From: a virus
Reading direction: 5' to 3' (one strand)
DNA: 64,000 nucleotides
Virus record (IMG/VR): IMGVR_UViG_3300005831_000023
Below are positions 10,170 through 52,437 of this stretch, one piece after another; position 1 is the first letter of the stretch; each line of letters begins with the position of its first letter. The translations under genes were made by a program, and so were the position numbers. The notes under the pieces are model-generated. The model was not told the origin of the DNA. It made no database searches and saw only the letters and a program-made list of their open reading frames with translations.

Positions 10170-10170
10170 C

Positions 10171-13491: not shown

Positions 13492-13494
13492 TAA

Positions 13495-13977: not shown

Positions 13978-13992
13978 GAAAGGATATAGACA

Positions 13993-14323: not shown

Positions 14324-14442
14324 ATAAAAAAAATCAATTCTCATGCTCCTAGTGCATCTTAAATAGTATACAAATATATACCTTTTGTCAATAAGTATAG
14401 TGTATAGTGATAATATGTATATTTTGTAAATAGTTTATAAAA

Positions 14443-14493
14443 CAAAAAAAATTAGCCTAACAATACAATATTTAACTATTATATCATTAGGCT
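14443..14493 (-). terminator. Intrinsic terminator candidate at the end of the late gene block
   Basis: AGCCTAA / TTAGGCT stem (14454-14460 with 14487-14493) just after the stop at 14499. Followed on the minus strand by AATTTTTTTT. Confidence 0.4.
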
Positions 14494-14498
14494 TTATA

Positions 14499-14837: not shown

Positions 14838-14855
14838 ACAAAAATCTCTCCATTT

Positions 14856-15611: not shown

Positions 15612-15612
15612 C

Positions 15613-16005
15613 TCACATTTTATTAGTTATTTGAAGCACTAAATATGTTAATCCTGCAATGATTATTGGTGGCATAGCTTTTTCAATTACCATTTTGAAT
15701 ATTTCTTGAAATGACATAGAATTATTCTTTAAATCGTTTATGTTTTGTTGGATTATTTTATTATCTAAGTTATCAATTTTATCATTTAACTTTTGTACAA
15801 GTTCTGTTTGCTGTGATACGTTTGCAGTAAGTTTAATCAACACTTGAGATTGTTTGTCCAGAATATCTTCATGTTTAGTATTTGATTTTGTCAACATCTC
15901 GACTATTGTCTTAAGTTCTGTAACTATATAAGTTAGAGAATTTAAGTTATCGATATCCTTTTGAATTGATTGAAATAAATCTTGTTTTATGCACTCGTGA
16001 GCCAT
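15613..16005 (-). CDS. Putative holin / membrane-anchored coiled-coil protein (C-terminal TM)
   Basis: 130 aa. Helical N-terminal part and a C-terminal hydrophobic helix PPIIIAGLTYLVLQI. Lies immediately upstream of the endolysin. Confidence 0.5.
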   Translation of the reverse strand: MAHECIKQDLFQSIQKDIDNLNSLTYIVTELKTIVEMLTKSNTKHEDILDKQSQVLIKLTANVSQQTELVQKLNDKIDNLDNKIIQQNINDLKNNSMSFQEIFKMVIEKAMPPIIIAGLTYLVLQITNKM

Positions 16006-16037
16006 TTTGATGACCTCTCTTCTATCTATTAAAATAT

Positions 16038-17405: not shown

Positions 17406-17408
17406 CTC

Positions 17409-38300: not shown

Positions 38301-41300
38301 CATTGAAAAAATTATTTACTAAATCAAAATATATTCCACCGTCTTTATTTGTATCTAATAAATTTAACCATTCATCCTTATAACTCATTAAATTAGCATA
38401 TTCAATCTTGAGTTCATATGGTTTCATGGTTTGCATTTTTTTAAGTCTTTGTTCTACAAAATCGAATTGAACTTTATATTTGTTTCTAAAAGCGTCTCCT
38501 TTTGATGATTCTAACAAATTTTTCAATGCCTTTTCATAATTTTTAACAACATCTATAATAGATTGGTATTCGCTTTTAAATTCAACTAGTTTAATAGATG
38601 AATCAGAAATTAATTGATTTAACCAGTCAAAACTTTCTTTTTGTTTTTTATCCATTGATCCATAAGCTTCGGTTAAAGCTTTTACAGTTGAAGTCAATGC
38701 TATCAACTGTTCTTCTTTATTTCCTTGAAAAGATATTCCAGAAATTTGATCTACTGTAACATTATCAATTTCTTTTAATATGTCCCTAACTTTCTCGATT
38801 TTAGATATAGAATCATAAAAACTATCTGTTTTTTTACCAGAATATTTTTGAACGTCTTTTGTTATACCAGAAATTATAGCATCCTCTATACTTGCATTAG
38901 GATCTTTATTAGTCAATACAGAACCTACACTTACAGCATCTTTTTTATTATAAGTCTCTTTAGCATCTGCTATATTTTTTCCAGCAGTTGCGAGAAAATC
39001 TTCTTCTTTAGCCTTTTTAACCTTTTCAATTAAATCAAGTTGTTCTTTTAATGATTTGTTCTGGAAATCTAAACTACCAGTAGTAATACCAAGTTGTTGT
39101 TGTAACTGCTTTTCAATATTAGTCATTTCCATTTTTGTAACAGCAGCATCTTGAATAACTAATTTGTTGTTATAGTAACTTTCTGTCAAGTCTTCTAAAG
39201 AACTAGTGTATGTTTTATAAGTATTTAAGCTCTGCTCCAATTCTGAATTTACTTCTTTAGACTTTTCTTTAAAAAATCCTAAAGCCTCTACAACTGCCCA
39301 AATCACAACAGCAACAGTGCCTATAATTCCAGCCTTAGAAGCAAATGTGCCAACAGCACTAGAACGATTCGCTGCAAGTTGACCGACTGCTACCGCTTCA
39401 CTTAAAGCAATTCTCTCTCTATCTGTAGCCATATCTACACGTTTTAATGCTGTAGTTCGAGCTAATACAGCTTGATATTCTACTTCTGTCAAGACTCCAT
39501 TTTGATACATTGCATTAACATATCTTTGAGCTTCTGCAACTCCAAACATAGCAGTTCTTTGTTTAAACATAGCAGAAGTAGCGAATTGAATATTAAATGC
39601 CATAGATGTAAATATATTGCCTAAAGTAGATATACCAAATGTTTTAAGTATTAAATTTAATCCTTGTAAAGCTAATCCTAATTCGATTGCATACATCAAC
39701 ACGGATTTTATTGGAGTAGGCAATGATCCCAACACATTTGCAACATTAGTCATAAGTTCTACAAATGTTTTTAACTGGTCTAATAATCCAGATTGACCAA
39801 TAGAGATAGCTAACTCAGAAAAAGCAACCTTTAATACTTCAACTTTTTTAGCGTATGTTTCCATTATCTTAGCATTTTCTATAACAGAATATGAAGTAGC
39901 TGGATCGAGTGAATTAGCTCCAATTTCTTTAGCTTCGGATCTAATTTTACCGAGTTGATCCCACGAATCGGCGAGCAAAGAAACCCAGTTCTTTCTCCAA
40001 GCGCCTCCTAATTTATCCAATATATCGTTACTTGCTTGAGATTCATCTCCAAACTCTTTAAGCTTAACAGATACTTGAGACATAATATCTTTGAAGCCAT
40101 AAAATTCAGTCTCATTCTTTTTAATTGTTATTCCATATTTCTCTAAAGCTTTGATAGTTTCTGGTCTATATGCATAAGATTCCAAAGTTTTCAAGGCATT
40201 TCCAATTTCATTCCCCGAAGTTGCGGTGCGCTCCCCTAATAATACAACGAGCGAGTTTATGTCTTCGAGGTCTAATCCCAGCTTTTTAGAGCTTGCACCA
40301 GCCTTGGATATAGCCTCAGCAAAGTCTTTTGAACTTACAGCATATCTATCAGCTAATCCATTCCATTCATCAATAATACGATTACTGTCACTAAACTGTA
40401 ACCCTAATTGTTTTACAGTTGAAACAAGATATTTAACCATTTCAGCGCTATCTTTGATTTCTGTAGTATTTACACCAAGTAAAACAGATTCAGTCATTTG
40501 TTTTAAAGTGCTTGGGTCATTAATACCAGCCTTAGCTAAATCAGCCATAGCCTTTTGAGTATCAGATATATTATTACCAAACTTTTTAGATAATTCAATA
40601 CTAGCTTGACCAATTTTAGGCATTTCAGATTGAGATAAATTATTCATAACTCTTGTTATGTTTATTAATCCACTTTCGTAATCTGAGTTTACTTTGATCA
40701 AATTAGTCATAGATTGTTGAACATAACCATAAGCAGCTCCAGAAATGGAATACACTAACGAGTTGCTAAACTTATCCATTAATGTAGCTCTTCTGTCTCC
40801 AGAACCCAATACTCCATTGGTTAATGCATTCATTTTTTGAGATATATCATATTGCCTTCTCATTTGTTCAAGCTCAGCATTAGCACTTATATTTGAATTT
40901 AATTGAGCATTTGAGTATCTACTTCTTTGAGTAATTAAATCAGATAACTGTCTACGTTCTATATCAGTAGCTTCATTGAGGTTTTCTTTCTGCTCTATAA
41001 TGCTAGTTAATATGTTGATTTGCTGTGAAAGCTCTCTGTTTAAAGCATCAACAGCAGAAGCATATTCAGAAGTTCCCTTGGTTGATGATTTAACTATATT
41101 AGTATATTCTTGAATGGAGCTTTTCAGCATATCAGACTCATATTTTTGTTTTTGAGATCTTTGCATAGAAATTTCTGAACTTTTCAACTGTCTTTGAAGT
41201 AATTCTTCATTATCATCTGTAAGTTTAAAATCGCTAGAATTACGATAAGAAGTAAGCTTTGAATAATATTCTTCTATGGCAACTTTACCTTTTTTAAAAT

Positions 41301-42714
41301 TGCTAATAAGCTCAGTGAATCCTCTATTATAATCATCTAGACCTTGTTTTGCAACAGTTGGTTTATTGAGTAAATTATCAAGAGTTTTAATCTTAGTTTG
41401 AACAGTTGTATATTCATTGGAAGTAAGTTCTAATGTATCTCTAAGTGTAGTTAAATCTCTAATAGTATCTTGTATATTTTTAGTGCTTTTTCTTTCAGAT
41501 GCATCAAGTGAATTATAAGTATTCATTATAGTATTAAGTTGAGTTGTAAAGTTTAATTTATTATATGAATCTATATAACCTTTTCTAGTCTTAACAAGAC
41601 TTCCAGTCTCTTTTTCTTCTAAAACTAGTCTATTTATAATATCATCATATACCTTTTTAATGCTTGTTAAAGCTTCTAGTCTAGATTTATCTGTATTTGC
41701 ATTATTAATTAAATCTTTAGCATTATTAACATTAATTATATCTTGTCTAGTCAATAATTCATTTTGTTTAGACAATTCTGAATTAGCAGCTTTTATAGCA
41801 TTATTAAATTCTTTTTGAAGAGAAACTTTTAAAACAATCTCTTTATCGGATGTTTTTGAAGCATCTATTTGTTTTTTAGAACTTTCGGCAAATGTTAAAA
41901 ACTCGTCAGCTGAGCTTAAACCAGCTTTATATTTAGTTACCATTGCTTTTATATTAGCGCCAAATGAATCCTCTGTAGTACTAGTTGTACCTCTTTTGGT
42001 AAGCTCTTTTTGAAGAGTTGCTATTTCTTTATTTATTGCAATAAACTCTTTAGATGCAGAAGGCAATGTATTACGAAGATCTATAAAATCTTGCATAAAC
42101 CCTTGTAAGGCTTCATCACCATCTTTGAATTCAAGCTTTGCGCTCTGGACACTACTTTTTATCTGGTTAAATGTAGTAGTAACTATTTTGGAGTTAAATT
42201 TTTCTGTCATACTATCTATCATTTTGATTTCTGGAGAATCTTTTGTAAATGCCGAAACACCTTCACTATCTGGTCTTAATGACTTTTCTTTTAAAATTTC
42301 AAATTCCTTTTTTTTGCTTTTGAGAAACTCTATGCTATTCCTATCTTTAGCAGAAGAACTTGCGTATGCATAATCCATTTCTTTAAGTATTTCTTTCAAT
42401 ACCCTTTTTGAATTAAATAGTTCTTGAGTTATTCCGGCAAACTTACCTTCTACATCTTTATCTAAGTCAAACTTCATAGTCTTAGTTGCTAACAATCCAG
42501 TTTTATCAATAAATTTACGATGTTCTATAAATCTACGCTTTTCTTCATCTAAGTATCTTCTAGTTATCATAAATGGTTTTTCAAGGTCTTTTTCATTAAT
42601 TTCTATGTCGACTGATGTTTGTAAGTTTTGAGATGCTAAATGCTTCTTTACAACTTTAATTTTATTTAAAAAATCATCTATGTCTAAACTCAGTTTATGT
42701 TCTAAATTAGCCAT
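35389..42714 (-). CDS. Tape measure protein (2441 aa)
   Basis: Very long, largely alpha-helical/coiled-coil protein with central hydrophobic segments (..IIGTVAVVIWAVVEALGFF..). Position is after the chaperone pair. Confidence 0.9.
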   Translation of the reverse strand: MANLEHKLSLDIDDFLNKIKVVKKHLASQNLQTSVDIEINEKDLEKPFMITRRYLDEEKRRFIEHRKFIDKTGLLATKTMKFDLDKDVEGKFAGITQELFNSKRVLKEILKEMDYAYASSSAKDRNSIEFLKSKKKEFEILKEKSLRPDSEGVSAFTKDSPEIKMIDSMTEKFNSKIVTTTFNQIKSSVQSAKLEFKDGDEALQGFMQDFIDLRNTLPSASKEFIAINKEIATLQKELTKRGTTSTTEDSFGANIKAMVTKYKAGLSSADEFLTFAESSKKQIDASKTSDKEIVLKVSLQKEFNNAIKAANSELSKQNELLTRQDIINVNNAKDLINNANTDKSRLEALTSIKKVYDDIINRLVLEEKETGSLVKTRKGYIDSYNKLNFTTQLNTIMNTYNSLDASERKSTKNIQDTIRDLTTLRDTLELTSNEYTTVQTKIKTLDNLLNKPTVAKQGLDDYNRGFTELISNFKKGKVAIEEYYSKLTSYRNSSDFKLTDDNEELLQRQLKSSEISMQRSQKQKYESDMLKSSIQEYTNIVKSSTKGTSEYASAVDALNRELSQQINILTSIIEQKENLNEATDIERRQLSDLITQRSRYSNAQLNSNISANAELEQMRRQYDISQKMNALTNGVLGSGDRRATLMDKFSNSLVYSISGAAYGYVQQSMTNLIKVNSDYESGLINITRVMNNLSQSEMPKIGQASIELSKKFGNNISDTQKAMADLAKAGINDPSTLKQMTESVLLGVNTTEIKDSAEMVKYLVSTVKQLGLQFSDSNRIIDEWNGLADRYAVSSKDFAEAISKAGASSKKLGLDLEDINSLVVLLGERTATSGNEIGNALKTLESYAYRPETIKALEKYGITIKKNETEFYGFKDIMSQVSVKLKEFGDESQASNDILDKLGGAWRKNWVSLLADSWDQLGKIRSEAKEIGANSLDPATSYSVIENAKIMETYAKKVEVLKVAFSELAISIGQSGLLDQLKTFVELMTNVANVLGSLPTPIKSVLMYAIELGLALQGLNLILKTFGISTLGNIFTSMAFNIQFATSAMFKQRTAMFGVAEAQRYVNAMYQNGVLTEVEYQAVLARTTALKRVDMATDRERIALSEAVAVGQLAANRSSAVGTFASKAGIIGTVAVVIWAVVEALGFFKEKSKEVNSELEQSLNTYKTYTSSLEDLTESYYNNKLVIQDAAVTKMEMTNIEKQLQQQLGITTGSLDFQNKSLKEQLDLIEKVKKAKEEDFLATAGKNIADAKETYNKKDAVSVGSVLTNKDPNASIEDAIISGITKDVQKYSGKKTDSFYDSISKIEKVRDILKEIDNVTVDQISGISFQGNKEEQLIALTSTVKALTEAYGSMDKKQKESFDWLNQLISDSSIKLVEFKSEYQSIIDVVKNYEKALKNLLESSKGDAFRNKYKVQFDFVEQRLKKMQTMKPYELKIEYANLMSYKDEWLNLLDTNKDGGIYFDLVNNFFNEIMSGSKKATEGMQYFNEQNDIAKRSVESFIKNEKDLANAYKEIEDTGHLSGQTISELVELYPQLSDKIKEQGEFLTIEKESLNEVFKADKEKTLAVISHRLQEVNAETDALYKILDLRGMDIESLGELEAARKESTKDNERLAKEYKASDNPIIRAVGDALEAELAVSKTTTDIYNHVLRIKQLKSQLDTIGKEDLAKYVKGLRGNKDDDGSRDSKSLSNKILEDARYQDLTSKLNNINELLAKEQALFDGLADNDYDKKIESLERENELLERKKVILSDIVTEEKVEQSELKNKLSDKGFAFDEEGVITNGTEKLQEYVDYVNARVGASDEEYNRANNDYTEVKNLFNRYTDLAKDISQTDIDFSGIVSGINKNLLEITDIEVAKKFDGVESSILVFEKALKDLDYELRIANKDKTKQYEILAQKSELYQNEIKRETSLLNELNSITDENITKNATFIKKKLELVDKIKEEIASLNDLKNQEIDANETALADAESRIIAIIDKGVELRKKALDKELDDFNDFIDEKIKARDKENDATDYEKDLKKELKIKQEIQDKINGYKYDTSLVGYQRTIELEEKLNEQNEKINDMKTKRNRDLIKQGLEDQKDSKAKEKENAINALDEEFSESNKRLIAHDILIDQSFDKIRLKFPELFKELDVATSDFFGTFESYELKFGNVVGDFAKKFKDEILPDLLRAVQALRDIESGINNIDYSQAEFNKDFDYSAKINEYKAQGLTEDSPEIVELRKKQAAKIYSDPKLTALYEQFIPEKYRQSKITTGINQANVELDKAEINAPKPTKYTKRDYERMYFDSSIDYSQMLRDAYNQGYTENDPMVVAIQEKRAAKIYSNENWKRLYENTIPAQYKISGSYANGINGGLINKTGTYLLHGSSNDPEWVLTNSQMYNLVRNMSNNMTSVLGNKGTNLGDINLSINIQGNATNDVVSQIKGASVQVISDMRRELNKVGIYK

Positions 42715-42743: not shown

Positions 42744-42772
42744 AATAAAAAAAGTGACCCTAAAAGCCACTT
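42744..42772 (-). terminator. Terminator-like hairpin about 30 nt upstream of the tape measure start
   Basis: Minus strand AAGTGGC-TTTTAGG-GTCACTT followed by TTTTTTTATTT. Lies in a 237-nt gap between the chaperone ORF and the tape measure gene. Confidence 0.35.
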
Positions 42773-42951
42773 AAAATTAAATAAAACAAATATATTAAAT
42801 TAAACATAACAAAAGTATTTATAATATAAATCAAGCATATTCTATATAAAATATCTTGACAATCTAATTGAAATTGAGAGTCTATAAATAAGTACGACAT
42901 AAAACAAGTTCCGTATATTATATTGAATATAATTCCAGTCATAATATCAAC

Positions 42952-43170
42952 TCATTCTTTATTATTTAGTATTCCAAAACCTCTAAGAGTATTCATTGTT
43001 ACTTTTTGAGGCTTAGGAGCTACTTCTTTAACAATCATAGGATTTTTAAGAGCTATACCTTTAACTCCTTCTTCATCGAGATAATCCCTGCTAAGTAATG
43101 CTATATTAAATTGCCAATCAAATTTATATGATATCTCTTTAATTAATGTTTTGTAGAATGGATAAGTCAT
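42952..43170 (-). CDS. Tail assembly chaperone, downstream (T-like) frame; probably expressed as a -1 frameshift extension of the upstream ORF
   Basis: This frame stays open upstream of its ATG and overlaps the end of 43230-43664 in the -1 frame. An A-run slip site lies at 43264-43271. Confidence 0.55.
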   Translation of the reverse strand: MTYPFYKTLIKEISYKFDWQFNIALLSRDYLDEEGVKGIALKNPMIVKEVAPKPQKVTMNTLRGFGILNNKE

Positions 43171-43229
43171 GTTATCTAATTGATATTCTGTATATCCAGT
43201 TTCTAAAGCAATAATACCTAACGACCTAT

Positions 43230-43664
43230 CTAAACTGAGTCCTTCTTCGCCTCCATTCGCTTCATTTTTTCTAAAAAATCTTCATCTTTTATACCATTCA
43301 TATTATTAGCAATAGTTATAATATCTAATAAATTTTGAGTGGTTAAATTATCTATAAAATCCTGCGTTGGTTCTTTATCAAATACAGCTGTCAAGTATTT
43401 ATTTAGTATACTATCTCCATCTTCATATCTCAATATTTCAGATACACCTATTGTTTTAATTATCATAAAACTATTATAGTCACCAGACTTGAAATATTTG
43501 ATCTTAGTAGCCTTAATAGTGATTATACCTATACCATCCACTTCAATTTGATTATTCTCTAATTTAGGCTTTTTAACGTTTGTAGAGGTATCTATATCTT
43601 CTTTCATTGTGTCAAAGCTTTCTGTAGCTTTTAATAACATTTCTCTTTCAACTTTATTGCTCAT
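43230..43664 (-). CDS. Tail assembly chaperone (G-like)
   Basis: 144-aa acidic protein upstream of the tape measure gene. Confidence 0.6.
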   Translation of the reverse strand: MSNKVEREMLLKATESFDTMKEDIDTSTNVKKPKLENNQIEVDGIGIITIKATKIKYFKSGDYNSFMIIKTIGVSEILRYEDGDSILNKYLTAVFDKEPTQDFIDNLTTQNLLDIITIANNMNGIKDEDFLEKMKRMEAKKDSV

Positions 43665-44544
43665 TAAAGTATCTCCTATCGTTTGTTAGTAAAGGCTCAT
43701 CACCTTTTTTAAGTTTAGGACATAGATGTAAGTTAGGCTTAACAACGTTATCTATATATTTATACTGATAAACTAAAATATTGCCATTTCTAATACATGG
43801 ATTTTGACAGCAATTATCAATACAATATTGTTGGTATTCACACATTATATGATCCTGGAATAAAGAAGTATCAACATACAATTTAAACCCATTCTCTTTG
43901 GCGCTTAAACAAAATGGTATATCTTCGCCAAATTCATGAAAATCATATCTGCATTTTGTATATGCATTCTTACTTATTAGGTACACTGCTCCAGTGTAAT
44001 CACATTCTACAATTGAGTTAAGTGGAAATTCATAAAAATGTGATATTGAGTTATATCTATTATTTATCAATACATTAGTTCTTATATGTGGATATTCTCT
44101 ATAAGGTTGGAGTATACTATCATTATTGATTAAGCAAGCAATTATATCTTTTTTACTTTTTAACAACTTTTTAAGTGTATTAGGAACTAAAATAATATCG
44201 CTATCAACGCTTAAAAAATAATCAGTATCTAAATTTTCTAAGATATGGTTTCTAAGAAGTGTTAATCTTCTATACGTTTCATTTCTATAAGTATCTAATC
44301 GCTTGTCTTTAAAAGCTGGAAGTTTATACTTCTCAAGTTTAATTTCTAGATATTCTTTATCATGAATTGATTTAAATCTTCTTAAAGTAGAATCAGTTCC
44401 ATCTTGACAGTTATTAATTAAGAAATATAGTTTAATTTTATCCTTGGGATAATCTAGATTATAGATAGCTTCTAAATATCTATCTATTAAATATTCTCTA
44501 TTAGATATTGGACATCCAATTGTTATAGTACGCAAATCAATCAC
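43654..44544 (-). CDS. Glycosyltransferase, family 2 (GT-A fold)
   Basis: N terminus ITIGCPISNREYLIDRYLEAIYNLDYPKDKIKLYFLINNCQDGT and a DSD motif (SVDSDIILV). Overlaps the chaperone gene start by 11 nt. Confidence 0.75.
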   Translation of the reverse strand: MIDLRTITIGCPISNREYLIDRYLEAIYNLDYPKDKIKLYFLINNCQDGTDSTLRRFKSIHDKEYLEIKLEKYKLPAFKDKRLDTYRNETYRRLTLLRNHILENLDTDYFLSVDSDIILVPNTLKKLLKSKKDIIACLINNDSILQPYREYPHIRTNVLINNRYNSISHFYEFPLNSIVECDYTGAVYLISKNAYTKCRYDFHEFGEDIPFCLSAKENGFKLYVDTSLFQDHIMCEYQQYCIDNCCQNPCIRNGNILVYQYKYIDNVVKPNLHLCPKLKKGDEPLLTNDRRYFNEQ

Positions 44545-44611
44545 CTCGTATTAGTGTCTAATTTGCTTTATATGGATTTGTTTAAAAAGACATGTAATTA
44601 TAGCTTAAAAC

Positions 44612-44660
44612 TAAATAAGAGGCTTATAAGGCATCTAGACGTCAAATAAGCCTATATATA
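44612..44660 (+). repeat. Short copy of the rep-proximal repeat family
   Basis: TAAATAAGAGGCTTATAAGGCATCTAGACGTCAAATAAGCCTATATATATC shares AGAGGCT, TAAG, ATCTAGA and GACGTCAAAT(A/T)AG(C/A)C..TATAT blocks, in the same order and orientation, with unit 13495-13612. Confidence 0.55.
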
Positions 44661-45284
44661 TCATTGTATAACGAATAATGCATTTCCCATTCCAAGATAG
44701 TTATATTCATTATCATCATGAATTAATGTAAATCCATTTTTCTCTAAGAATTTAGTATAGTCTTCAAATAGACATAGACCAGTGTAGCGCTCTTTTATAG
44801 AGTACTCAGTATATATAAGCTTAATTTGTTTTATAGCTATTCTAGATGCGCTAAGGACGTTATACTCATTGCCTTCCATATCAAACCAACAAACTATATC
44901 TCCAGTTATTTTGTTATTCTTAACAAACTTGTCTAAAGTAATAGTTTCAACAGTTTGTTTAGTTTTAAAATATACATCTGGATGAATAGTCAAATGTTCC
45001 TTTGGTTCTAACAAAGTATCTGATCCAGTTGTATTTCCAGAACTTACAAACATCTCAGAAGTACCATTCTTGTTGTGCAATGCAAGATTAAACAACTTAA
45101 CATTAGCTAGGTCTTTAGTTCTATCAGTTAACTCAGCAAAATGATGAGTAATAGGTTCTATTCCATACACAATTCCATTAGAAAATACATTGCTTAATTG
45201 AACTGTATCAAAACCTTTATTAGCTCCTGCATCAATTACTGTAGCATTATTTCCAACATACTTAAGAAAATCAAGTTTGTTCAT
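44661..45284 (-). CDS. FkbM-family SAM-dependent methyltransferase
   Basis: VIDAGANKGFDT (SAM-binding Gly-rich motif). LDKFV..I..DIVCWFDMEGNEYNVL is typical of FkbM-type methyltransferases. Confidence 0.7.
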   Translation of the reverse strand: MNKLDFLKYVGNNATVIDAGANKGFDTVQLSNVFSNGIVYGIEPITHHFAELTDRTKDLANVKLFNLALHNKNGTSEMFVSSGNTTGSDTLLEPKEHLTIHPDVYFKTKQTVETITLDKFVKNNKITGDIVCWFDMEGNEYNVLSASRIAIKQIKLIYTEYSIKERYTGLCLFEDYTKFLEKNGFTLIHDDNEYNYLGMGNALFVIQ

Positions 45285-45285
45285 A

Positions 45286-45984
45286 TCACAACTCCTTTAT
45301 TTTTATTCTTTCTAATACATTCAAGCTAAGTCTTTTAACAAAATTATCATGGTCATTTTCCCAGTTTATATGATAAGCTTCATCATTTGAATCTTTACTT
45401 CTTTTGCCAAGCACAAAATGTCTATGCTCAAATAATGTATTATCATTAATTCTATTATCTTTTAAGACACCTAAATCTCTAACATTAAAGTAAAGCTCGG
45501 TATCACTAAACATATGAGTATATGAAGGATGATAGATGGCTTTGTTTAATAACTTAAGACACTTAAAAGTCATTATTGGAATTGTAATAGATGGTCTATA
45601 TCCAAGATTATATGGATCTTGATACCCATCATTAACAAATAAACATCCAGCAAAGTCATTAAATTGGTCAAATAAATATAAATCCCAGTCAATTGGTGCG
45701 AAAAAATCGTCGGAACTCAATATTATAATATCATTATCATTAGCATCTAAATTAGAAGTTAAGTAATAAGTTGGATATACAACACCTCTAGTTCCATTGT
45801 CTGCAACGAATACTTCACAGTTAGATATATTATAACTATCTATTATTGATTTTTGAGAATCATTCGATACAGCTACTTTTAATATAATATTATCAATATT
45901 ACTACATTTAGATTTCCAGTCATTATATGTATCATAAAACATTTGTGGTCTTACAGTTGACCAAAGTAAATATATATTCATCAC
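45286..45984 (-). CDS. Hypothetical protein in the glycosylation cluster (possible glycosyltransferase)
   Basis: Operon context. IIILSSDDFFAP could be a DxD-like motif. No secure family assignment. Confidence 0.6.
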   Translation of the reverse strand: MMNIYLLWSTVRPQMFYDTYNDWKSKCSNIDNIILKVAVSNDSQKSIIDSYNISNCEVFVADNGTRGVVYPTYYLTSNLDANDNDIIILSSDDFFAPIDWDLYLFDQFNDFAGCLFVNDGYQDPYNLGYRPSITIPIMTFKCLKLLNKAIYHPSYTHMFSDTELYFNVRDLGVLKDNRINDNTLFEHRHFVLGKRSKDSNDEAYHINWENDHDNFVKRLSLNVLERIKIKEL

Positions 45985-46685
45985 TTACCCCAATTCCACT
46001 TTTCTCTAAAGTAACTTGCTCTATCATAGTAGTTTGTTTCAGATAATACATGAGTCTTATTCCATTTACTAGTTTGTTTAGCATGGTAGTAAGAACAGTC
46101 TAATTGGTACACATCCCATTTTAAAGCTTGCATTTGGAAAAACAAATCATCATCCTCAAACCCCCATCCTACTTTATAATTTTCATCAAACATGCATTTA
46201 TCAAATACTTCACTTTTAAACAATCCATATTGAGTTAATGCATATGAAGCAAATGAAACTTCATGTTTTAAAAGTTCATGTTCAATCGAAGGGAGTTGAG
46301 GAGTATAAGTTTTCAAGTCGTTTGTAAAATACTTAGGATTGAATCCAATGCATTTAGCATTAAAATTTAAATCATCAAATCTGTTTTTAAAGTAATTTAA
46401 ACTTCCGTTAATATATAATATATCAGAATCCATCATTAGTATAAAATCACCTTTAGCAACTCTAATCATTTGATTCCTACCAATTGCAGAGCCAACATTT
46501 TCACTATTCAAGATACTTATAAGGTCATTTTGATCTTTCAACCATTCTTGTGATCCATCTACTGAACCATTATCCAATATAATAATTTCTAAGTCTACAG
46601 TTTTACGCTCTTCACGTAAATTATCTATTGTAGGTTTTAATATTTCTAACCAATTCCAATTAATAATGCAAACACTAAATGTCAT
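45981..46685 (-). CDS. Glycosyltransferase, family 2
   Basis: FSVCIINWNWLEILKPTIDNL..IIILDNGSVDGSQEWL and MDSDILY (DxD). Confidence 0.8.
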   Translation of the reverse strand: MTFSVCIINWNWLEILKPTIDNLREERKTVDLEIIILDNGSVDGSQEWLKDQNDLISILNSENVGSAIGRNQMIRVAKGDFILMMDSDILYINGSLNYFKNRFDDLNFNAKCIGFNPKYFTNDLKTYTPQLPSIEHELLKHEVSFASYALTQYGLFKSEVFDKCMFDENYKVGWGFEDDDLFFQMQALKWDVYQLDCSYYHAKQTSKWNKTHVLSETNYYDRASYFREKWNWGK

Positions 46686-46690
46686 GGTGA

Positions 46691-47422
46691 TTACTCCTTA
46701 TTTAAATAATATCTACCATTATATTTTTGATAAATATCTAGTAAAGTATCCATTCCTTGACCATAATCAATACATACTTTACCACATTGTTTAGCCATTA
46801 TATTTGATATAATCTTTGCATTTACACCAGCCGAAACTAGACTCCAATCATGATCTACACTATTCATATACTCAATAGTCTTATCAATATCATTTGGATT
46901 AGTAATATCTGTGTAATATCCTTTAGCGACAACTCCTAATTCTTCTAATAAAAAATCAGCAAATAGTTTAGACAGTGAACCAATCAATAATGGAGGATTG
47001 AGTCTAATCAAGTTAACAAAATCTTTACTATAACATAATCCTACATTTACAAATGCATAACATAAATTTTTTGGTTTATAATCTAAAGCCGAAAACATTC
47101 TACTTGTAAAATCATCATCTGGAAATACACCAACAAAATCAGCTTCTTTAATTGCATTAATAAGCCTATCTCTTGTTTTGATATCTGGTGTTGATACTCC
47201 ACAATAAGCAGTTCCAGTTGACCATGCTACATCTTTGCGTATATAATCTTGGCTAAGCAATATTTCTTGAGACATAATTATTAATTCGCCATCACCAATT
47301 CTAGTTATATAAAATGGTTCTTTATTTTGTATTTTAGTATATATAATATTAATTAAATCTTCTTGAGATATTAAATCAGAGTGATTAAATTTAATATGAT
47401 TAGCATTTGTTAAATAACTCAT
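46691..47422 (-). CDS. Putative GT-D-type glycosyltransferase (DUF1792-like)
   Basis: The RIGDGE motif (ITRIGDGELIIM) recalls the GT-D/DUF1792 family. The assignment is tentative. Confidence 0.55.
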   Translation of the reverse strand: MSYLTNANHIKFNHSDLISQEDLINIIYTKIQNKEPFYITRIGDGELIIMSQEILLSQDYIRKDVAWSTGTAYCGVSTPDIKTRDRLINAIKEADFVGVFPDDDFTSRMFSALDYKPKNLCYAFVNVGLCYSKDFVNLIRLNPPLLIGSLSKLFADFLLEELGVVAKGYYTDITNPNDIDKTIEYMNSVDHDWSLVSAGVNAKIISNIMAKQCGKVCIDYGQGMDTLLDIYQKYNGRYYLNKE

Positions 47423-47910
47423 ATGCTATCCCTTTCGATATCATCTACATAACCAATAATTCTAGCAGGATTTCCAACAACTATAGCATAGTCTGGGACA
47501 TCCTTGGTAACTACTGATCCAGCTCCAACCATAGCGTATTTGCCAATTATTAAATCTGGTAATATAGTGCAATTAGCACCTATAGAAGCTCCTTTTTTAA
47601 CTAAAGTTTTCTCGATACTCCAATTATCTTTAAATGCTCTTGGAAACTTATCATTAGTAAATTGAGTGCCTTGACCAATATAAACTTGATTTCTTATGGT
47701 TACACCATTGTATATATTTACCGAGTTTTGTATCTTGCAATGATTGCCAATACTTACACTCTTATCTATATATGAATTAGCTCCAATACTAGTTCCAAAG
47801 CCTATTATTGCATGATCTCTAACTTGAACATTGTTCCAGATTTTAGCACCATTTTTTATAGTAGATTTATCACTTATTTCTGATATTTTGTGAATAAATG
47901 CTTCTGCCAT
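47419..47910 (-). CDS. Sugar N-/O-acetyltransferase with left-handed beta-helix hexapeptide repeats
   Basis: Repeated [LIV]-G-x-x-x-x hexapeptide pattern (IGFGTSIGANSYI, IGNHCKIQNSVNI, IGANCTI, VGAGSVV, VGNPARI). Confidence 0.8.
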   Translation of the reverse strand: MAEAFIHKISEISDKSTIKNGAKIWNNVQVRDHAIIGFGTSIGANSYIDKSVSIGNHCKIQNSVNIYNGVTIRNQVYIGQGTQFTNDKFPRAFKDNWSIEKTLVKKGASIGANCTILPDLIIGKYAMVGAGSVVTKDVPDYAIVVGNPARIIGYVDDIERDSI

Positions 47911-47912
47911 AA

Positions 47913-49034
47913 TTACACCTCGTTTAATATTTGTTTAATAGTATTACCAATATAATCTATTTCATTCTTTGTTAAACTAAAATGAACAGGAATAGATAAT
48001 ATTTCATCCTTTACTTTATCAGCGATTTCAAATACCTCTCTAGAAGCTATATGAGCTTGATGAGGCATTAAAATAGGATAGCATATATCAGAACCAATAT
48101 TATGTTTAAATAACTCATCCTTAAGCCTATTTCGACTTATAGAGCATATATCTTTAATACGTATAGAATATTGATTATAAACAGTAATTCCTTGAGAATA
48201 CTCTTCTTGGAACTTGATATATTTACAGTCTTTTAATAATATATAATAGTTTCTAGCATTCTCATGTCTAAACATATTCCGTTTAGTTATATGTTTAAGT
48301 TGGCATAAACCAATAGAAGCTGATATATTTGTCATCATATAATTATATCCAAGCATAGTAGAAACATATTTTTCAGCTTGACCATGATTCCTAATCATTT
48401 TGAGTTTCTTATATATATTAAAGTCGTTAGTGGTTACCATTCCACCTTCTCCAAGATACATATTATTAGTTGGGTAGAAACTAAAACAACCACAATCTCC
48501 AAAAGTACCTACATATTGAATGTCTTTATCATTTAATAATATCTCAGCAAAATGAGCTTGACAACAGTCTTCTATAACTCTTAAATTATACTTGTATGCA
48601 ATTTTATTAATAGTAATCATATCACATGGATTACCAAATAAATGAACTACTAATATTGCTTTAGTTTTATTAGTTATCTTATCTTCAATCTGATCAATGT
48701 TCATGTTTAAAGTCTTATCATCAATATCAACAAAAACTGGTTTAGCTCCACACATTAGAATACTATTAGCAGTAGATATAAATGAAAAACAAGTAGTAAT
48801 TACTTCATCGCCTTGACCAATACTATTGGATATTAAAGCCATATGCAAAGCGCTAGTGCCACTATTACAAGCTACTGCATAATCACAATTCATTTTTGTA
48901 GCAAACTCATATTCAAATTTTTCAACTACTTTTCCATATCCAAGTTGTTTGGAGTGCAATACTTCATTTACAGCATTTATTTCTTCGCCAGTTATTATAT
49001 TGTTTGTCATACTAATAAAATCCATTTTAATCAT
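47913..49034 (-). CDS. DegT/DnrJ/EryC1/StrS-family (PLP-fold) sugar aminotransferase-like protein; the Schiff-base lysine appears replaced by Asn
   Basis: Motifs NSGTSALHMAL, VIEDCCQAH and CFSFYPTNNMYLGEGGMV (the family consensus has K at the first N of NN; N190 is codon 48465-48467). Confidence 0.8.
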   Translation of the reverse strand: MIKMDFISMTNNIITGEEINAVNEVLHSKQLGYGKVVEKFEYEFATKMNCDYAVACNSGTSALHMALISNSIGQGDEVITTCFSFISTANSILMCGAKPVFVDIDDKTLNMNIDQIEDKITNKTKAILVVHLFGNPCDMITINKIAYKYNLRVIEDCCQAHFAEILLNDKDIQYVGTFGDCGCFSFYPTNNMYLGEGGMVTTNDFNIYKKLKMIRNHGQAEKYVSTMLGYNYMMTNISASIGLCQLKHITKRNMFRHENARNYYILLKDCKYIKFQEEYSQGITVYNQYSIRIKDICSISRNRLKDELFKHNIGSDICYPILMPHQAHIASREVFEIADKVKDEILSIPVHFSLTKNEIDYIGNTIKQILNEV

Positions 49035-49037
49035 CTC

Positions 49038-50018
49038 CTAACTATGAAGACCATTGTAGACATCTAATATTTGATAAGCTTTAAGTCTGTAATTATGATT
49101 TCTATAGACAAATTCTTGAGCATTGGTTGCAAATTCTTTTCTCATAGCATCAGTCATACCCAATATCTCTTTAGCCATATCTCTCATTTCTGGATAGTCT
49201 TTAGCGAGGTATACATGCTTATAAAAGCATATTTCTTGAGCTTTAGTATAATAACTAAGTAAGATACTGTGACCACATCCAAGTACCTCAAAATCCCTCA
49301 TGCTTTGTTGCGTAAAACTTCTATCACTACACTGAGAACCTAAAGCAATTGTAGCACTAGAATACATTGATGGTAATTCTTCATATGGTAATACGCCATG
49401 ATAACAATTCATATGATTAGCTAAGTTAACTGGTCTAGTAAAATCATCCCAACAAAGACCATATACATCAACTTTAAAATCATCTAACAATGGCATTATA
49501 AATTGTTTAGACTTATCAAATCTATTACTATAGTTACTAGCACATAATGCAATATCATGAGCATATTTTGGGTTAAAACCAACATTTTTATGATATTCTG
49601 GATTAACACCAAACATTAACAATGAAGCGCTTTTTCCATTCTTTCTATATCTAGGTAAGCATTCTAATGTAGTTGTAAATATATGATCTGAATGCTCTGA
49701 AAAATAATCTCCGATTTGAGTTGTAACAGGGTCTTCTATTGCCCATGCAAATATTGGTATACCTAATACATTAGTACATTTTCTTAATTGTATTAAAGGC
49801 AATCCGCCATAACCCTCTGTAAATATTAAATCTGGCTTGAAATTATGTATTTTAGTAAGTAATAATTTTAAATGTTCTTCAAATGGTTGCTCCCAAATCT
49901 TGTGATGTTCCGGATCGCTTAAATAATCAACTTCCATACCAATCTGTTGAAACCCACTCATTAATCCAAATTTAATTAATGGGACTTGTGATAAGAATAA
50001 TACTCTTATTTTTTTCAT
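49038..50018 (-). CDS. Glycosyltransferase-like protein (CgeB / GT1-related C-terminal domain)
   Basis: C-terminal RDFEVLGCGHSILLSY..AKEILGMTDAMRKEFATNAQEFV resembles the CgeB-type Glyco_trans_1 segment. Confidence 0.55.
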   Translation of the reverse strand: MKKIRVLFLSQVPLIKFGLMSGFQQIGMEVDYLSDPEHHKIWEQPFEEHLKLLLTKIHNFKPDLIFTEGYGGLPLIQLRKCTNVLGIPIFAWAIEDPVTTQIGDYFSEHSDHIFTTTLECLPRYRKNGKSASLLMFGVNPEYHKNVGFNPKYAHDIALCASNYSNRFDKSKQFIMPLLDDFKVDVYGLCWDDFTRPVNLANHMNCYHGVLPYEELPSMYSSATIALGSQCSDRSFTQQSMRDFEVLGCGHSILLSYYTKAQEICFYKHVYLAKDYPEMRDMAKEILGMTDAMRKEFATNAQEFVYRNHNYRLKAYQILDVYNGLHS

Positions 50019-51013
50019 ATGTTAATCACCTTTTCATAGTATTTTTCTATAGATTCTGAAATTAAATCAGCTCTTATTTTCCAAGAATTATTATTAGCAA
50101 CTTCTAAACATTTTGATTTTATAATCTCATCATTTTTAAGTCTTAATGCTTTTTCGATATTCATAATATAACCTTCTCTTGTAGAACTTGTTAAAACAAT
50201 ATCTTTATATTCTGGATCACATGCTTCTGGGATATCTGTAGATACTGTTATTTTTCCATGAGACATGCCTTCGTACATCTTGATTGGGTTACTATAGTCT
50301 GATATTTGACAGCGCTTAAATGGTAATAAATTGACGTCACAATGATGATAATAAGCTTGAAGTTCCTCATAACTTTTGTTACCAATGAATATACAGTTAC
50401 TTGGAATATCTTTTATCCCCCAAGTCAAACCAACTACAACAACATTATATCTGACTGACAAAGCTCCGATTAATTCTAAATCACACCAGAATGCTAATGC
50501 TCCACTAAATAATAATATAGGTCTACCATTCATTCGAATATTTTGATATTCAATTGGTATAGGATAATCTATTAATCCAAGCTCTGGAAAACATCCATTT
50601 CTACAAAGATGAATATTATTATGTTCAGATTCTCTAAGGTTATATAAAGTTTTAGATGTGGTAAATAAAATGTTAGATTTAGAAATCATACTGGTTTCAT
50701 GCATAGAATTAGCTTCGAAATTATCTAAGCTATCATATATTACTAAGTCGCTCCTTATGCTATCTAAGTCAATAAATCTGCTAGACCAGCTAGAAAAGTA
50801 GATATCCACTTTTGGAACTCTTTTTACAAATACATCCCAATTATAATGAATTTCTAAATTATTATTAATAATATCTTTAGCCTTATCTTTAACTTGAGTT
50901 TGATTAACCCAGTATACTTTATAGTTGTTAGAAAGTAACTTCATAAGATGATGAGGTCTTTGTTGCAATGCAAAATCAAAATCTATAGTATTGGCATATA
51001 ATAAAGTTTTCAT
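50015..51013 (-). CDS. Glycosyltransferase (GT-B-like)
   Basis: C-terminal NPIKMYEGMSHGKITVSTDIPE is a GT4-like motif. The start is probably M15 of the ORF-track protein (ATG at 51013, preceded by AAAGGAA). The track start at 51055 abuts a terminator T-run and has no SD. Confidence 0.6.
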   Translation of the reverse strand: MKTLLYANTIDFDFALQQRPHHLMKLLSNNYKVYWVNQTQVKDKAKDIINNNLEIHYNWDVFVKRVPKVDIYFSSWSSRFIDLDSIRSDLVIYDSLDNFEANSMHETSMISKSNILFTTSKTLYNLRESEHNNIHLCRNGCFPELGLIDYPIPIEYQNIRMNGRPILLFSGALAFWCDLELIGALSVRYNVVVVGLTWGIKDIPSNCIFIGNKSYEELQAYYHHCDVNLLPFKRCQISDYSNPIKMYEGMSHGKITVSTDIPEACDPEYKDIVLTSSTREGYIMNIEKALRLKNDEIIKSKCLEVANNNSWKIRADLISESIEKYYEKVINI

Positions 51014-51055
51014 TTTTTTTAATTCCTTTTGTTTATTTTTTCTAAAAATGGACAT

Positions 51056-51110
51056 AAAAAAAATCGGGTAATAAATTGTTTACTATTAAATAGTGTTCAA
51101 TCTATTACCC
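51056..51110 (-). terminator. Rho-independent terminator after the major tail protein gene
   Basis: Stem GGGTAATA / TATTACCC (51066-51073 with 51103-51110) with an inner ACTATT/AATAGT stem. Followed on the minus strand by T8 (plus-strand A-run 51056-51063). Confidence 0.65.
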
Positions 51111-51171
51111 ATAATTTTAATATAATATTTATATAAAGTCAATTAAAAGGAGAATTATATTAATTTCTAAT

Positions 51172-51939
51172 TTATACTGGTTTAACAATTAATTGGTACA
51201 TATTTCCATCAGATCTTCTTGGATCTAATCCAGTTAAGTCTAATTTAAATGTACTTGCTGATTTATAAGAACCACTAATTTCATAAGTAGGCATAATCTT
51301 ACATTTATAAATCATTAATTGCGCATATGCTTCAATGATACTATCTGTAGCATCTGCTGAACTATAAATTGGAAATTGAATAACACAACTAGCAGCAGCT
51401 GCAAAATCTGTGGTTTGTACAGTTAATATATCAGTAGTAGCAGCAGTCGCTACTCTATAAGCTGGATATACTTTATCTCCAATAGCAGTAGCTTCAAAAT
51501 GTATAACTGTATCAGAACCAGAAGTTGATACCCAAAATTGAGTTGCAGTTGGAGTTGTTCCAGATGATTCAGTAAATCCATTAATTTCTACTGATCCAGC
51601 AACAGCTACTACACCAGTTAATGTAATTACTGCATTAGCATCAATTGTATATGGATCACCAAAGTAGTAATACTCACTTGCGCCAGTAGTTCTAGCACCA
51701 CCAGAAGTTAACTTTAATGCATCTAAATCCCATTGTGCATCTGTAATACTTGCTGTTATTGTCTTTTTTGTGTCGATTTGGGCTAAATTGTAAAATGACC
51801 ACCCACCAGTAATTTCCAGGGAATCACCGCCTAGTGTGATTTGTCCTTGAGTAGCAGTAGCCAAATGTGAATTTCCATTAGCAGTTTTTACCAACACTTT
51901 AGGAGCGTCGATAATAAACCCTTTACCTGTAAAAGCCAT
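51172..51939 (-). CDS. Major tail (tube) protein
   Basis: 255 aa, Thr/Ser/Ala-rich. Position is after the neck genes. Strong SD AAGGAGG. Followed by a terminator, which is typical of an abundant structural protein. Confidence 0.65.
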   Translation of the reverse strand: MAFTGKGFIIDAPKVLVKTANGNSHLATATQGQITLGGDSLEITGGWSFYNLAQIDTKKTITASITDAQWDLDALKLTSGGARTTGASEYYYFGDPYTIDANAVITLTGVVAVAGSVEINGFTESSGTTPTATQFWVSTSGSDTVIHFEATAIGDKVYPAYRVATAATTDILTVQTTDFAAAASCVIQFPIYSSADATDSIIEAYAQLMIYKCKIMPTYEISGSYKSASTFKLDLTGLDPRRSDGNMYQLIVKPV

Positions 51940-51990
51940 AAAAATGACCTCCTTTATTTTAATTCAATTAAATTCATATATAAAAAAGGC

Positions 51991-52437
51991 TCAAACATAA
52001 ATCTTTTTATATTCAAACCTTATAGCATATCGTTTAAAGTAATTTGTTCCAGAAATAGATTCATAAGCTGTTGTATATATAAGCTTGACGTCATTGAAAC
52101 TTTGCCTATTTAAAAGAGCAATTAACCTATCAGATACTTGATTTATCCTTGTTTCAAAACCAGAGACTAAATCTTTATATGAAGGTATATAGACCTCTAT
52201 AATAACGCTGTCACGCTTTACATAGTCTGAATTAGTTTGTGATCCAAATCCTTTTCTAACTAATAGTCTGCATACTCCATCATCTGTGAACACATCAGAT
52301 ACAAATTGCTGTAAGAAGTATTTTGTTACCAATAAACCATAATCAGTTAACTCATTTGAAGGTATCAACATTAGTTGCTTTAAAGTCGTATCATTAACTA
52401 ATGTTTGCATTATAAGTCCGAACTCTTTAGCAATCAT
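51991..52437 (-). CDS. Tail completion / tail terminator-like protein (assigned by position)
   Basis: 148-aa ORF immediately upstream of the major tail gene. Confidence 0.5.
   Translation of the reverse strand: MIAKEFGLIMQTLVNDTTLKQLMLIPSNELTDYGLLVTKYFLQQFVSDVFTDDGVCRLLVRKGFGSQTNSDYVKRDSVIIEVYIPSYKDLVSGFETRINQVSDRLIALLNRQSFNDVKLIYTTAYESISGTNYFKRYAIRFEYKKIYV

Follow-up and report, generated by a model that had tools for sequence, protein, structure and literature searches.

A nine-gene sugar-modification island between the tail tube and tail chaperone genes of an uncultured SPbeta-like phage, with a possible role in virion glycosylation

Genes and expression signals of the island

We analysed a stretch of 64,000 nucleotides (the window) from the uncultured virus record IMGVR_UViG_3300005831_000023 (IMG/VR), and in particular a cluster of putative sugar-modifying genes that is located within its tail module. 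This cluster, which we refer to as the island, comprises nine open reading frames (ORFs), all on the minus strand (43654-51055), between the gene encoding the tail tube protein and the genes encoding the tail chaperones. An initial annotation made from the sequence alone had described nine tightly packed genes, and the ORF coordinates confirmed this: neighbouring ORFs overlap by 4 nt or are separated by 1-5 nt, the lone exception being a 116-nt spacer (44545-44660), and the last gene (43654-44544) shares 11 nt with the next ORF (43230-43664), as had been noted as well. The GC content of the island (0.27-0.32) is the same as that of its flanks.

The gene types and gene order proposed at the time (two GT2 enzymes, a GT-D-like protein, two GT-B/CgeB-like proteins, an FkbM methyltransferase, a hexapeptide acetyltransferase and a DegT-family protein) agree with the Pfam matches. 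Gene 1 (50015-51055, minus strand like all that follow), the anchor gene of the island, encodes a predicted glycosyltransferase (GT) of GT-B fold, GTB1, with weak matches to the Pfam families Glyco_trans_1_4 and Glycos_transf_1, a weak NCBIfam match to TuaH and 78 homologues at 38-76% identity; the alignment of these homologues makes the ATG at 51013 a likelier start than 51055. GTB1-like domains were also found fused to more GT-B or GT2 domains in remote relatives of 700-2300 aa (P0133, P0136, P0145), and in P0133 (45% identical) the fusion is with a second GT-B domain. Gene 2 (49038-50018) encodes a CgeB-like GT-B enzyme (PF13524 Glyco_trans_1_2, 3.8e-14, 53 bits against a cut-off of 25), which by analogy is a candidate priming protein O-glycosyltransferase; the YkvP_N domain (PF12996, DUF3880) was recorded only in the CgeB-like homologues of three relatives (L018, L021, where it is weak, and L024; relatives are given by their locus numbers). 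The products of genes 3 and 4 are a DegT-family, PLP-dependent nucleotide-sugar aminotransferase (47913-49034; PF01041, 1e-103), of which the nearest solved relatives are 7b0d, the perosamine synthetase 3bn1 and QdtB (3frk), and a left-handed beta-helix sugar N-acetyltransferase (47419-47910; Hexapep, 3e-20). The solved structures nearest to the latter are the WxcM-like 4mzu, the LPS-biosynthesis acetyltransferase 3mqg, the N-acetyltransferase 7s43 and QdtC (3fs8), which we take to be members of the FdtD/WlbB/QdtC group of aminosugar N-acetyltransferases. Gene 5 (46691-47422) encodes a GT-D fold glycosyltransferase (PF22882, 8e-45, 153 bits against a cut-off of 27; NCBIfam GT-D_rel NF040628, 128 bits against a cut-off of 75); PDB sequence searches with this protein and with the GTB1 profile gave no matches. 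Gene 6 (45981-46685) encodes a GT2 enzyme of GT-A fold (PF00535, 9.5e-19), gene 8 (44661-45284) an FkbM-family methyltransferase (PF05050, 1e-18; TIGR01444, 81 bits against a cut-off of 37.7) that presumably O-methylates a sugar, and gene 9 (43654-44544), at the 3' end of the island, an Anp1-like GT2 enzyme (PF03452, 1e-11, and PF00535), the likelier start of which is the TTG at 44535, preceded by AGGTGA, rather than 44544.

Gene 7 (45286-45984) had been left as an unassigned protein. In line with this, nothing was found for it in Pfam, PHROG or NCBIfam, and none of the 13 clusters that make up its family is annotated; its fold and motifs, however, are those of a GT-A glycosyltransferase. The AlphaFold model (pLDDT 90.7) has 183 PDB matches at E <= 0.001 and GT-A enzymes predominate among the matches listed; the Foldseek matches include chondroitin synthase, WrtF, TarS, TarP, RmlT and SpsA (E 2e-7 to 5e-5, TM 0.55-0.67). 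In the alignment of this orphan family both an SDD motif (residues 90-92, after a hydrophobic strand) and an FEH motif are invariant. With gene 7 as a GT-A enzyme, as predicted from the model, the island holds six glycosyltransferases, next to the sugar aminotransferase, the N-acetyltransferase and the FkbM methyltransferase.

A credible transmembrane segment is absent from all nine proteins (hydropathy over 19 residues peaks at 1.68, in a Rossmann strand that contains Asp and Glu), and the island contains no flippase, polymerase, ligase or lipid-carrier priming transferase. The cut-off was not reached for any of the NCBIfam sugar-pathway equivalogs (PseC/PseH, PglE/PglD, QdtB/QdtC, FdtB/FdtC, WlbC/WlbB), PseC (271 bits against a cut-off of 423) and the NeuD family (91 against 161) being the nearest. 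A dehydratase, an isomerase or a nucleotidyltransferase was not found among the scanned ORFs of the window, so that the sugar precursor should come from the host or from genes on the 54 kb of the contig that lie outside the window. The product of the island likely includes an acetamido-deoxy sugar.

The genes on either side had been taken for those of the major tail protein and a tail chaperone, and both assignments hold. The upstream gene (51172-51939, minus) encodes a YomU/SPR-type tail tube protein of 255 aa (PHROG 2729, virion structural): all but one of its 39 homologues (45-95% identical) carry PF27173 YomU_Tube, and its AlphaFold model (pLDDT 69 overall, but >90 in the central beta-sandwich domain, about residues 85-170) matches the tubes of Bacillus phage SPR (8ygm, 8xkn, 9jgh; E 7e-8, TM 0.54-0.57). 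The downstream ORF (43230-43664, minus; 144 aa) has no Pfam or PHROG match; the placement of its homologues and a canonical in-frame -1 slippery heptamer within it (T_TTT_TTA, 43278-43272) identify it as a probable G-like tail assembly chaperone with a -1 frameshift of the lambda G/GT type. The T-like extension in the -1 frame (42952-43278, minus) would have 108 open codons between the heptamer and the stop at 42952. The arrangement, with ORFs of 142, 73 and 60 aa, is kept in L021. In the window, the 60-aa ORF (42760-42942, minus) is very hydrophobic and lies between the chaperone extension and the gene of the 2441-aa tape measure protein (35389-42714, minus; PF10145 PhageMin_Tail, 5e-26); after it, just before the start of the tape measure gene, there is a terminator-like hairpin (42772-42752, minus).

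A strong terminator had been reported at 51056-51110 (minus strand), 3' of the tube gene, and the structure is real: a hairpin (51110-51066) with a run of eight T's (51063-51056) and a dG of -19.3 kcal/mol (z -5.2; none of 200 shuffles was as good). Yet it is clade-wide and not a property of the island, since the hairpin and T-run are found 3' of the tube gene in nearly all relatives, including Sundance and L039, which are free of GTs, but not in c-st. Directly 5' of the hairpin lies a sigma-70-like promoter element (TTGACT-17-TAAAAT, 51114-51142, minus), which would be the promoter of the downstream tail genes. An element of this type is present at the same site in L021, L002, L003, L018, L001, L024, L027, L030 and in the island-free L039, and the promoter-hairpin junction appears to be ancestral and clade-wide rather than specific for the island. 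Lying 3' of this junction and 5' of the chaperone gene, the island should be expressed along with the genes for the chaperone and the tape measure protein. A convincing terminator was found neither within the island nor at its 3' end, which together with the chaperone overlap supports the earlier proposal that the island is wired into the late structural operon. A terminator after the FkbM gene, which would turn genes 1-8 into a self-contained moron, was considered and rejected (hairpin z -1.6, no proper T-run).

Two details of these signals are worth recording. Throughout the clade the TTGAC(A/T)-17-TAnnnT element is positioned only 3-8 nt 5' of the hairpin (e.g. L002 10793-10870, L003 10779-10848), and a transcript from it would begin at or within the hairpin; the structure might end the tube mRNA and yet stabilise or attenuate the downstream tail transcript. 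The 116-nt spacer (44545-44660, minus) carries a conserved TATAAT and a hairpin over the ribosome-binding site of the next gene, and both the hairpins and the spacer are conserved in L021. In this hairpin (44530-44575, minus) the region 5' of the Anp1-like GT2 gene pairs with the Shine-Dalgarno sequence and start of that gene (GCAAATTAGACAC...GGTGATTGATTTGC); it persists in L021 (about 16445-16485) despite base changes and may represent translational control of the last gene of the island.

A sigma-70-like promoter 5' of the island would also suit a function other than the modification of virion proteins, namely the remodelling of host envelope glycopolymers (the lipid-linked precursors of wall teichoic acid, of a secondary cell wall polymer or of S-layer glycans). 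Soluble enzymes would then act at the inner face of the membrane and a host transporter would export the product, and the payoff would be superinfection exclusion, avoidance of the re-adsorption of progeny to debris or a benefit to the lysogen. We consider this main rival of virion glycosylation unlikely, though by no means far-fetched. The island-free L039 has the same promoter-hairpin junction, which argues that the junction serves the tail genes and not the island, and the lack of a 3' terminator implies that expression in a lysogen would include the chaperone and tape measure genes. At the level of the enzymes, the resemblance of the gene 7 GT-A fold to TarS, TarP and RmlT and the weak match of GTB1 to TuaH are in its favour, and sugars of the Qui3NAc/Fuc3NAc type occur in Firmicute S-layer glycans; on the other hand, six glycosyltransferases are many for the decoration of an existing polymer and a membrane-associated component is absent altogether.

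Distribution of the island among relatives and features of the phage

All 11 relatives with a tube protein at least 64% identical to that of the window (L021 at 87% and ten others at 64-73%; tube homology was the sole basis of selection for four of the 11) have a glycosylation island 3' of the tube gene, and wherever its far end is visible it lies between tube and tape measure gene. The island of L021, a metagenome contig of 32.5 kb, matches that of the window gene for gene and in order (69-81% identity), and the chaperone ORFs and tape measure gene that come next are also the same. The islands of the other close relatives begin with GTB1 and the CgeB-like gene and differ in the sugar-pathway genes of the middle; exceptions at the 5' end are L030 (no GTB1), L028 (no CgeB-like gene) and the GTB1 proteins of L027 and L028, which are only 31-34% identical. 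The Anp1-like GT2 gene is the last of the island in L021, L028 and L030, the loci in which the far end is visible.

The middle genes of the relatives encoded: a GDP-mannose dehydratase, epimerases, an HMGL-like enzyme and transketolase subunits (L003, L018, L027); a methyltransferase, a GT4, a B12-radical SAM enzyme and a UDP-glucose dehydrogenase (L019, L023); a SPASM protein and a GT-D (L028); and a GT8, a TagF-like enzyme, a short-chain dehydrogenase (SDR) and a nucleotidyltransferase (L030). The GDP-mannose dehydratase gene of L018 is interrupted by a LAGLIDADG intein (13967-16141), and in L027 an AP2-domain gene, a presumed homing endonuclease, lies between GT-D and GT2 (13729-14256). Genes of the teichoic-acid type occur in the islands of L024 (12033-14239), L030 (15163-18073) and L020 (10174-11106): a TagF-like glycerol/ribitol-phosphotransferase, and an IspD/NTP-transferase with a short-chain dehydrogenase that resemble CDP-ribitol synthesis. 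These genes hint at polyol-phosphate decorations, and as they are typical of ribitol-phosphate polymers they also speak for a role of the island in the modification of host glycopolymers.

The comparison with relatives that lack the island, which the initial annotation had called for, was possible with the loci L036-L042 (42-59% tube identity), where there is no island and no glycosyltransferase within 10 kb. In L036-L038 and L042 the chaperone homologue directly follows the tube gene, and where the two are not adjacent one zinc-finger ORF lies between them. The island-free relatives thus show the tube-then-chaperone order that had been named as the normal one, and the island can be understood as an insertion at that junction in one subclade.

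GTB1 and the Anp1-like GT2 gene were found to adjoin after the tube gene in three further lineages (L020; L022 and L024; the Paenibacillus prophages L005-L011), in which tube and capsid proteins share only 17-25% identity with those of the window. The Paenibacillus prophages have three glycosyltransferases and no sugar-synthesis genes; their third cassette gene was considered as a CgeB-like gene and rejected (hhalign probability 2%), as it is a GT4. In all 16 contexts examined GTB1 is located 3' of a YomU-type tube gene, and none of these is a bacterial polysaccharide locus. An apparent drop in identity from 38% to 27% had suggested a phage-exclusive GTB1 family, but this was an artefact: a full HMMER search shows a continuum of cellular relatives (67 representatives at <1e-30 and 2108 at <1e-10, many of them multi-domain synthases). 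A restriction to tail modules is therefore claimed only for the subfamily at >= 40% identity, which was found only in phage tail modules, with hosts that range from Paenibacillus to low-GC anaerobes; for this subfamily the 16 out of 16 contexts argue against a host-glycan function. The cassette type as a whole spans >20 elements, with island-free natural controls and prophages of culturable Paenibacillus strains.

To judge from its structural genes, the phage is an uncultured SPbeta-like siphophage. The relatives with tube and capsid proteins 64-87% identical have PF27364, PF27197 and PF27256 in the same order, and the neighbours of the homologous genes match the SPbeta structural families YonB (capsid), YomX, YomW and YomU. 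Related tube proteins are encoded by the GenBank phages Brevibacillus Sundance, the Lactococcus 949 group, the Bacillus Tsamsa-like phages, Geobacillus E3 and Clostridium c-st, but a near relative was not found among 50,697 GenBank phages, neither by megablast of 43000-52000 nor by tblastn of the tube protein; tblastn of GTB1 against the same records gave a short fecal contig (23% identical) as the sole match. Genes encoding a TnpB/IS605 OrfB-like protein, a ParA ATPase and a RepA_N protein neighbour one another (8898-10169, 10577-11356, 12319-13491), and RepA_N is closest to that of a Clostridium botulinum plasmid; the phage may be kept as a plasmid prophage, like Clostridium phage c-st. The endolysin (14856-15611, minus) combines Amidase_3 with a C-terminal SLH domain and has the endolysin of Moorella phage MTATph1 as its closest GenBank match. 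The SLH domain makes a host with an S-layer and a secondary cell wall polymer probable, and we tentatively suppose that this host is a low-GC Firmicute. Both the temperate, plasmid-like character of the element (ParA, RepA_N) and the envelope implied by the endolysin fit the idea that host glycopolymers are the target.

The window also encodes DNA polymerase III alpha, a ribonucleotide reductase (RNR), ThyX, a dUTPase and a dNMP kinase, of which the last four would fit with the glycosylation of the phage DNA, in which a hypermodified, hydroxymethylated base would confer resistance to restriction; phage glycosyltransferases often act on DNA (10.1101/2023.12.21.572611). We hold this to be the least probable of all explanations, since we saw neither a base hydroxymethylase nor a dioxygenase in the window, the island is located in the tail operon at about 40 kb from the replication genes, and six GTs with amino-sugar and methyl tailoring go far beyond the known DNA glycans. 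To our knowledge, the GT-D and CgeB families do not include DNA glycosyltransferases.

Proposed virion glycosylation and its alternatives

The chances are about even, in our estimate, that the enzymes of the island O-glycosylate exposed virion proteins at a late stage and in the cytoplasm, and that the oligosaccharide added is methylated and contains an acetamido sugar. What the comparisons and models establish is the set of genes, the GT-A fold of gene 7, the link to the tail operon, how the island came to be inserted and how variable the cassette is; virion glycosylation and especially its acceptor, as well as the expression timing and the sugar chemistry, we infer from the genes. Transcription from the promoter after the tube gene would take in the island along with the genes of the chaperone and the tape measure protein, and nine soluble cytoplasmic enzymes would be made. 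The DegT aminotransferase and the beta-helix N-acetyltransferase would convert a host-made keto-sugar nucleotide to an acetamido-deoxy sugar; GTB1, the CgeB-like enzyme, GT-D, GT2, the GT-A protein and the Anp1-like GT2 would build the oligosaccharide and the FkbM enzyme would methylate it. Exposed virion proteins would receive the glycan on Ser/Thr residues, either ahead of tail assembly or in the course of it, and the particle would end up with a glycan coat; candidate acceptors are the exposed central/outer domain of the tube subunit and the fibres. The conserved end genes and the exchangeable middle would lead to different glycans among relatives, in the manner of surface-antigen loci.

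The soluble enzyme set, without export machinery, and the wiring into the tail operon were counted for virion-protein glycosylation. The same holds for the families of two of the enzymes, since both are known in cytoplasmic protein O-glycosylation: a GT-D/DUF1792 enzyme acts in the O-glycosylation of streptococcal Fap1 (PMC5063993), and CgeB of B. subtilis reportedly attaches a sugar to Thr112 of CgeA, a hexameric crust protein (PMC13577073). Among phages there is a precedent in mycobacteriophages, whose own enzymes are reported to add glycans to the C-terminal regions of the capsid and tail tube subunits (Freeman 2023, as summarised in PMC12619734).

Several observations, on the acceptors, on the enzymes, on the site and on the relation between cassette and tube, weigh against this interpretation. 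The tube (21.6% Ser/Thr) and the fibres (21-25%) are indeed Ser/Thr-rich, as the initial annotation had put forward, and more so than any other protein of the window, but this does not discriminate: the Ser/Thr content of island-positive tubes (19.5-25.2%) is barely above that of island-negative tubes (17.6-19.8%), and the comparison is confounded by phylogeny. There is no Ser/Thr-rich C-terminal extension on the tube (...NMYQLIVKPV) or the capsid protein (...MVYEDTSL), nor a Ser/Thr-rich low-complexity tag in any virion protein of the window. The TagF-like and CDP-ribitol-like enzymes in the islands of some relatives have to be added here, and there are soluble prophage enzymes, TarP for example, that modify the wall polymers of the host. 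As to the position of possible acceptor residues, at four alignment columns Ser/Thr is found exclusively in island-positive tubes (S64, S88, T129 and T218 in the protein of the window), which is only a lead since these tubes form a single clade; a shared acceptor motif was not found, as the (S/T)TP(T/S)A(T/S) loop that is present in many tubes is absent from the Paenibacillus ones.

A further set of observations concerns the site. The slot after the tube gene appears to be a general cargo site in SPbeta-like phages. In c-st (L026, NC_007581; locus 9662-18642) it contains an amidase, regulators, the C3 ADP-ribosyltransferase exoenzyme, IS elements and the MazF toxin, and in L019, L023 and L029 leucine-rich repeat (LRR) proteins, an amidase, a NUDIX gene and an Acb2/Tad1-type gene are found before or inside the island. 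Host-directed cargo such as the C3 exoenzyme of c-st is also what one would expect if the island were directed at host glycans. In Sundance two small ORFs directly follow the tube gene. The Acb2/Tad1 hairpin-domain gene, of the anti-CBASS/Thoeris sponge family, is located directly after the CgeB-like gene (L023 11959-12183, L029 19348-19584), with NUDIX nearby, and anti-defence cargo would then share the island region in these two loci. Another site of the same tail module, that between chaperones and tape measure gene, holds a tyrosine recombinase of the phage integrase family in L008 (13101-14147), L025 (Sundance; 10900-11901), L022 (13635-14651), L024 (19185-20201) and L020 (15057-16052), and not in the window.

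Cargo that is merely tolerated in the tail module could also serve to make or decorate a diffusible compound, for instance a small molecule or peptide that carries sugar; SPbeta itself encodes the S-glycosylated bacteriocin sublancin, a model for such a function. The acceptance of unrelated cargo in the slot and the radical SAM/SPASM genes in the islands of some relatives agree with this idea. We nevertheless rate it as very improbable, as the island of the window has no gene for a precursor peptide, exporter, immunity or scaffold biosynthesis and an island is universal in the subclade, with constant end genes beside the tail genes.

The last set of observations relates to the uncoupling of the cassette from the tube. 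Two Paenibacillus prophages have GTB1 proteins that are 94% identical and tube proteins that are 21% identical, with the exchange boundary between the tube gene and the cassette, while the cassette, the chaperones and the start of the tape measure gene have 85% nucleotide identity. Across lineages with tubes that are 17-25% identical GTB1 is still 42-58% identical, and co-evolution of GTB1 and tube was not detected over tube identities of 17-87% (Spearman 0.18, p 0.07). The cassette is indifferent to the tube allele, which means that its enzymes are not adapted to one particular tube sequence; this indifference also fits a function directed at host glycans. Taken together, the claim that the island glycosylates the virion is supported as far as the wiring, the soluble enzymes and the family precedents are concerned, whereas the argument from its position beside the tube gene is weakened by the cargo slot and the tube-indifferent cassette. 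As an observation in its own right, L005 and L008 (about 7640-9230) differ by a swap of the tube gene and the preceding gene as a pair (alleles 20-23% identical, flanks 85-98%), in what appears to be a clean modular exchange of the tail tube between otherwise near-identical prophages.

The tube protein itself brings in an immune-evasion variant. In the case of an SPbeta-like phage, the tube protein in its monomeric form triggers the defence protein DSR2 (PMC10981675, PMC11263360), and glycosylated tube subunits or other structural proteins could escape intracellular sensors of this kind. This would be a special case of virion glycosylation with a different selective driver. The tube fold is that of the DSR2-activating SPR tube protein, Acb2/Tad1-type and NUDIX genes lie in or beside the islands of L023 and L029, and the hypervariability of the island would fit an arms race. 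However, DSR2 binds the conserved, ring-forming domain D1, which is buried on assembly (PMC10981675) and where glycans would probably block polymerisation, and a tube sensor in the host is purely speculative; we deem this variant very unlikely. A slim chance is given to the broader picture in which a glycan shield on the tube subunits counters structural-protein sensors, the arms race drives the hypervariability and the particles of some relatives are decorated with ribitol-phosphate.

If virion glycosylation were true, the phage-encoded form would extend to Firmicute phages; the only experimental demonstrations we could find of tailed-phage particles being glycosylated by the phage's own enzymes concern actinobacteriophages. 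The arrangement, in which a constant site of the tail operon combines conserved ends with an exchangeable sugar-pathway middle, would be new, and through it related phages would differ in their surface glycans, as bacteria do through their O-antigen or flagellin-glycan loci. If variable, the glycan on the virion could affect the stability of the particle, its adsorption to cells or debris and its recognition by host defences or antibodies. With the anchor enzymes in culturable Paenibacillus prophages and the island-free relatives as controls, the question is directly testable.

Comparison with known systems

The structural genes are like those of SPbeta, SPR, Sundance, c-st, the 949 group and the Tsamsa-like phages, with the YonB capsid, YomX, YomW, the YomU tube, the chaperones and a very long tape measure protein; in the literature we found no description of glycosylation genes in SPbeta-like tail modules. 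As in the GtrABC systems and with TarP of S. aureus, a temperate element carries glycosyltransferases, and TarP is a soluble GT-A enzyme with a fold that resembles the gene 7 protein. In contrast to GtrABC, the island has no GtrA flippase and no polytopic GtrC, and its PHROG matches to GtrB are marginal (1.5e-4 to 5e-4); in contrast to both, it consists of nine genes in the tail operon, instead of one to three near the lysogeny module.

Two cellular systems resemble the island in their enzymes. In the Fap1 system (dGT1; PMC5063993, PMC5207161) a GT-D enzyme extends an O-glycan on a protein in the cytoplasm, among other soluble GTs, but the serine-rich repeat protein and the accessory Sec system of Fap1 are both missing here. 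In the spore crust (PMC13577073) the cytoplasmic GT-B enzyme CgeB primes a Thr in an exposed loop of the ring-forming CgeA, and other GTs extend the glycan. Unlike in this cellular system, the CgeB homology in the phage is at the level of the Pfam family only, and no CgeA-like acceptor was identified in the phage.

Giant viruses likewise encode nucleotide-sugar tailoring enzymes (DegT-type, N-acetyltransferase, methyltransferase) and soluble GTs for their own particle, independently of the host. The capsid glycans of PBCV-1 and the viosamine/bacillosamine clusters for the Mimivirus fibrils (PMC9614988) form a functional parallel, although these viruses are eukaryotic and their virion proteins are unrelated. 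The parallel extends to the relatives of the island, which also hold a GDP-mannose dehydratase and a UDP-glucose dehydrogenase.

The closest demonstrated system is that of the mycobacteriophages (Che8, Corndog, Myrna and others; Freeman et al. 2023, Cell Host Microbe 31:1216, as cited in PMC12619734, PMC13313380 and PMC12894461). These phages are reported to encode, similarly, GTs and a methyltransferase that act in the cytoplasm, and the proposed targets are abundant surface proteins, the tube included. The differences lie in the host (a low-GC Firmicute here, Actinobacteria there) and in the enzymes, which belong to different families; for GTB1, no homology to the GTs of Che8 or Corndog emerged from tblastn against the GenBank phage records mentioned above, which include actinobacteriophages. 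A Ser/Thr-rich C-terminal extension, as on the mycobacteriophage proteins, is not found on the tube or capsid here. The island is the larger system, with six GTs and a nucleotide-sugar tailoring module, and it is set apart from the mycobacteriophage genes by its fixed site between tube and chaperone, its conserved ends and its exchangeable middle.

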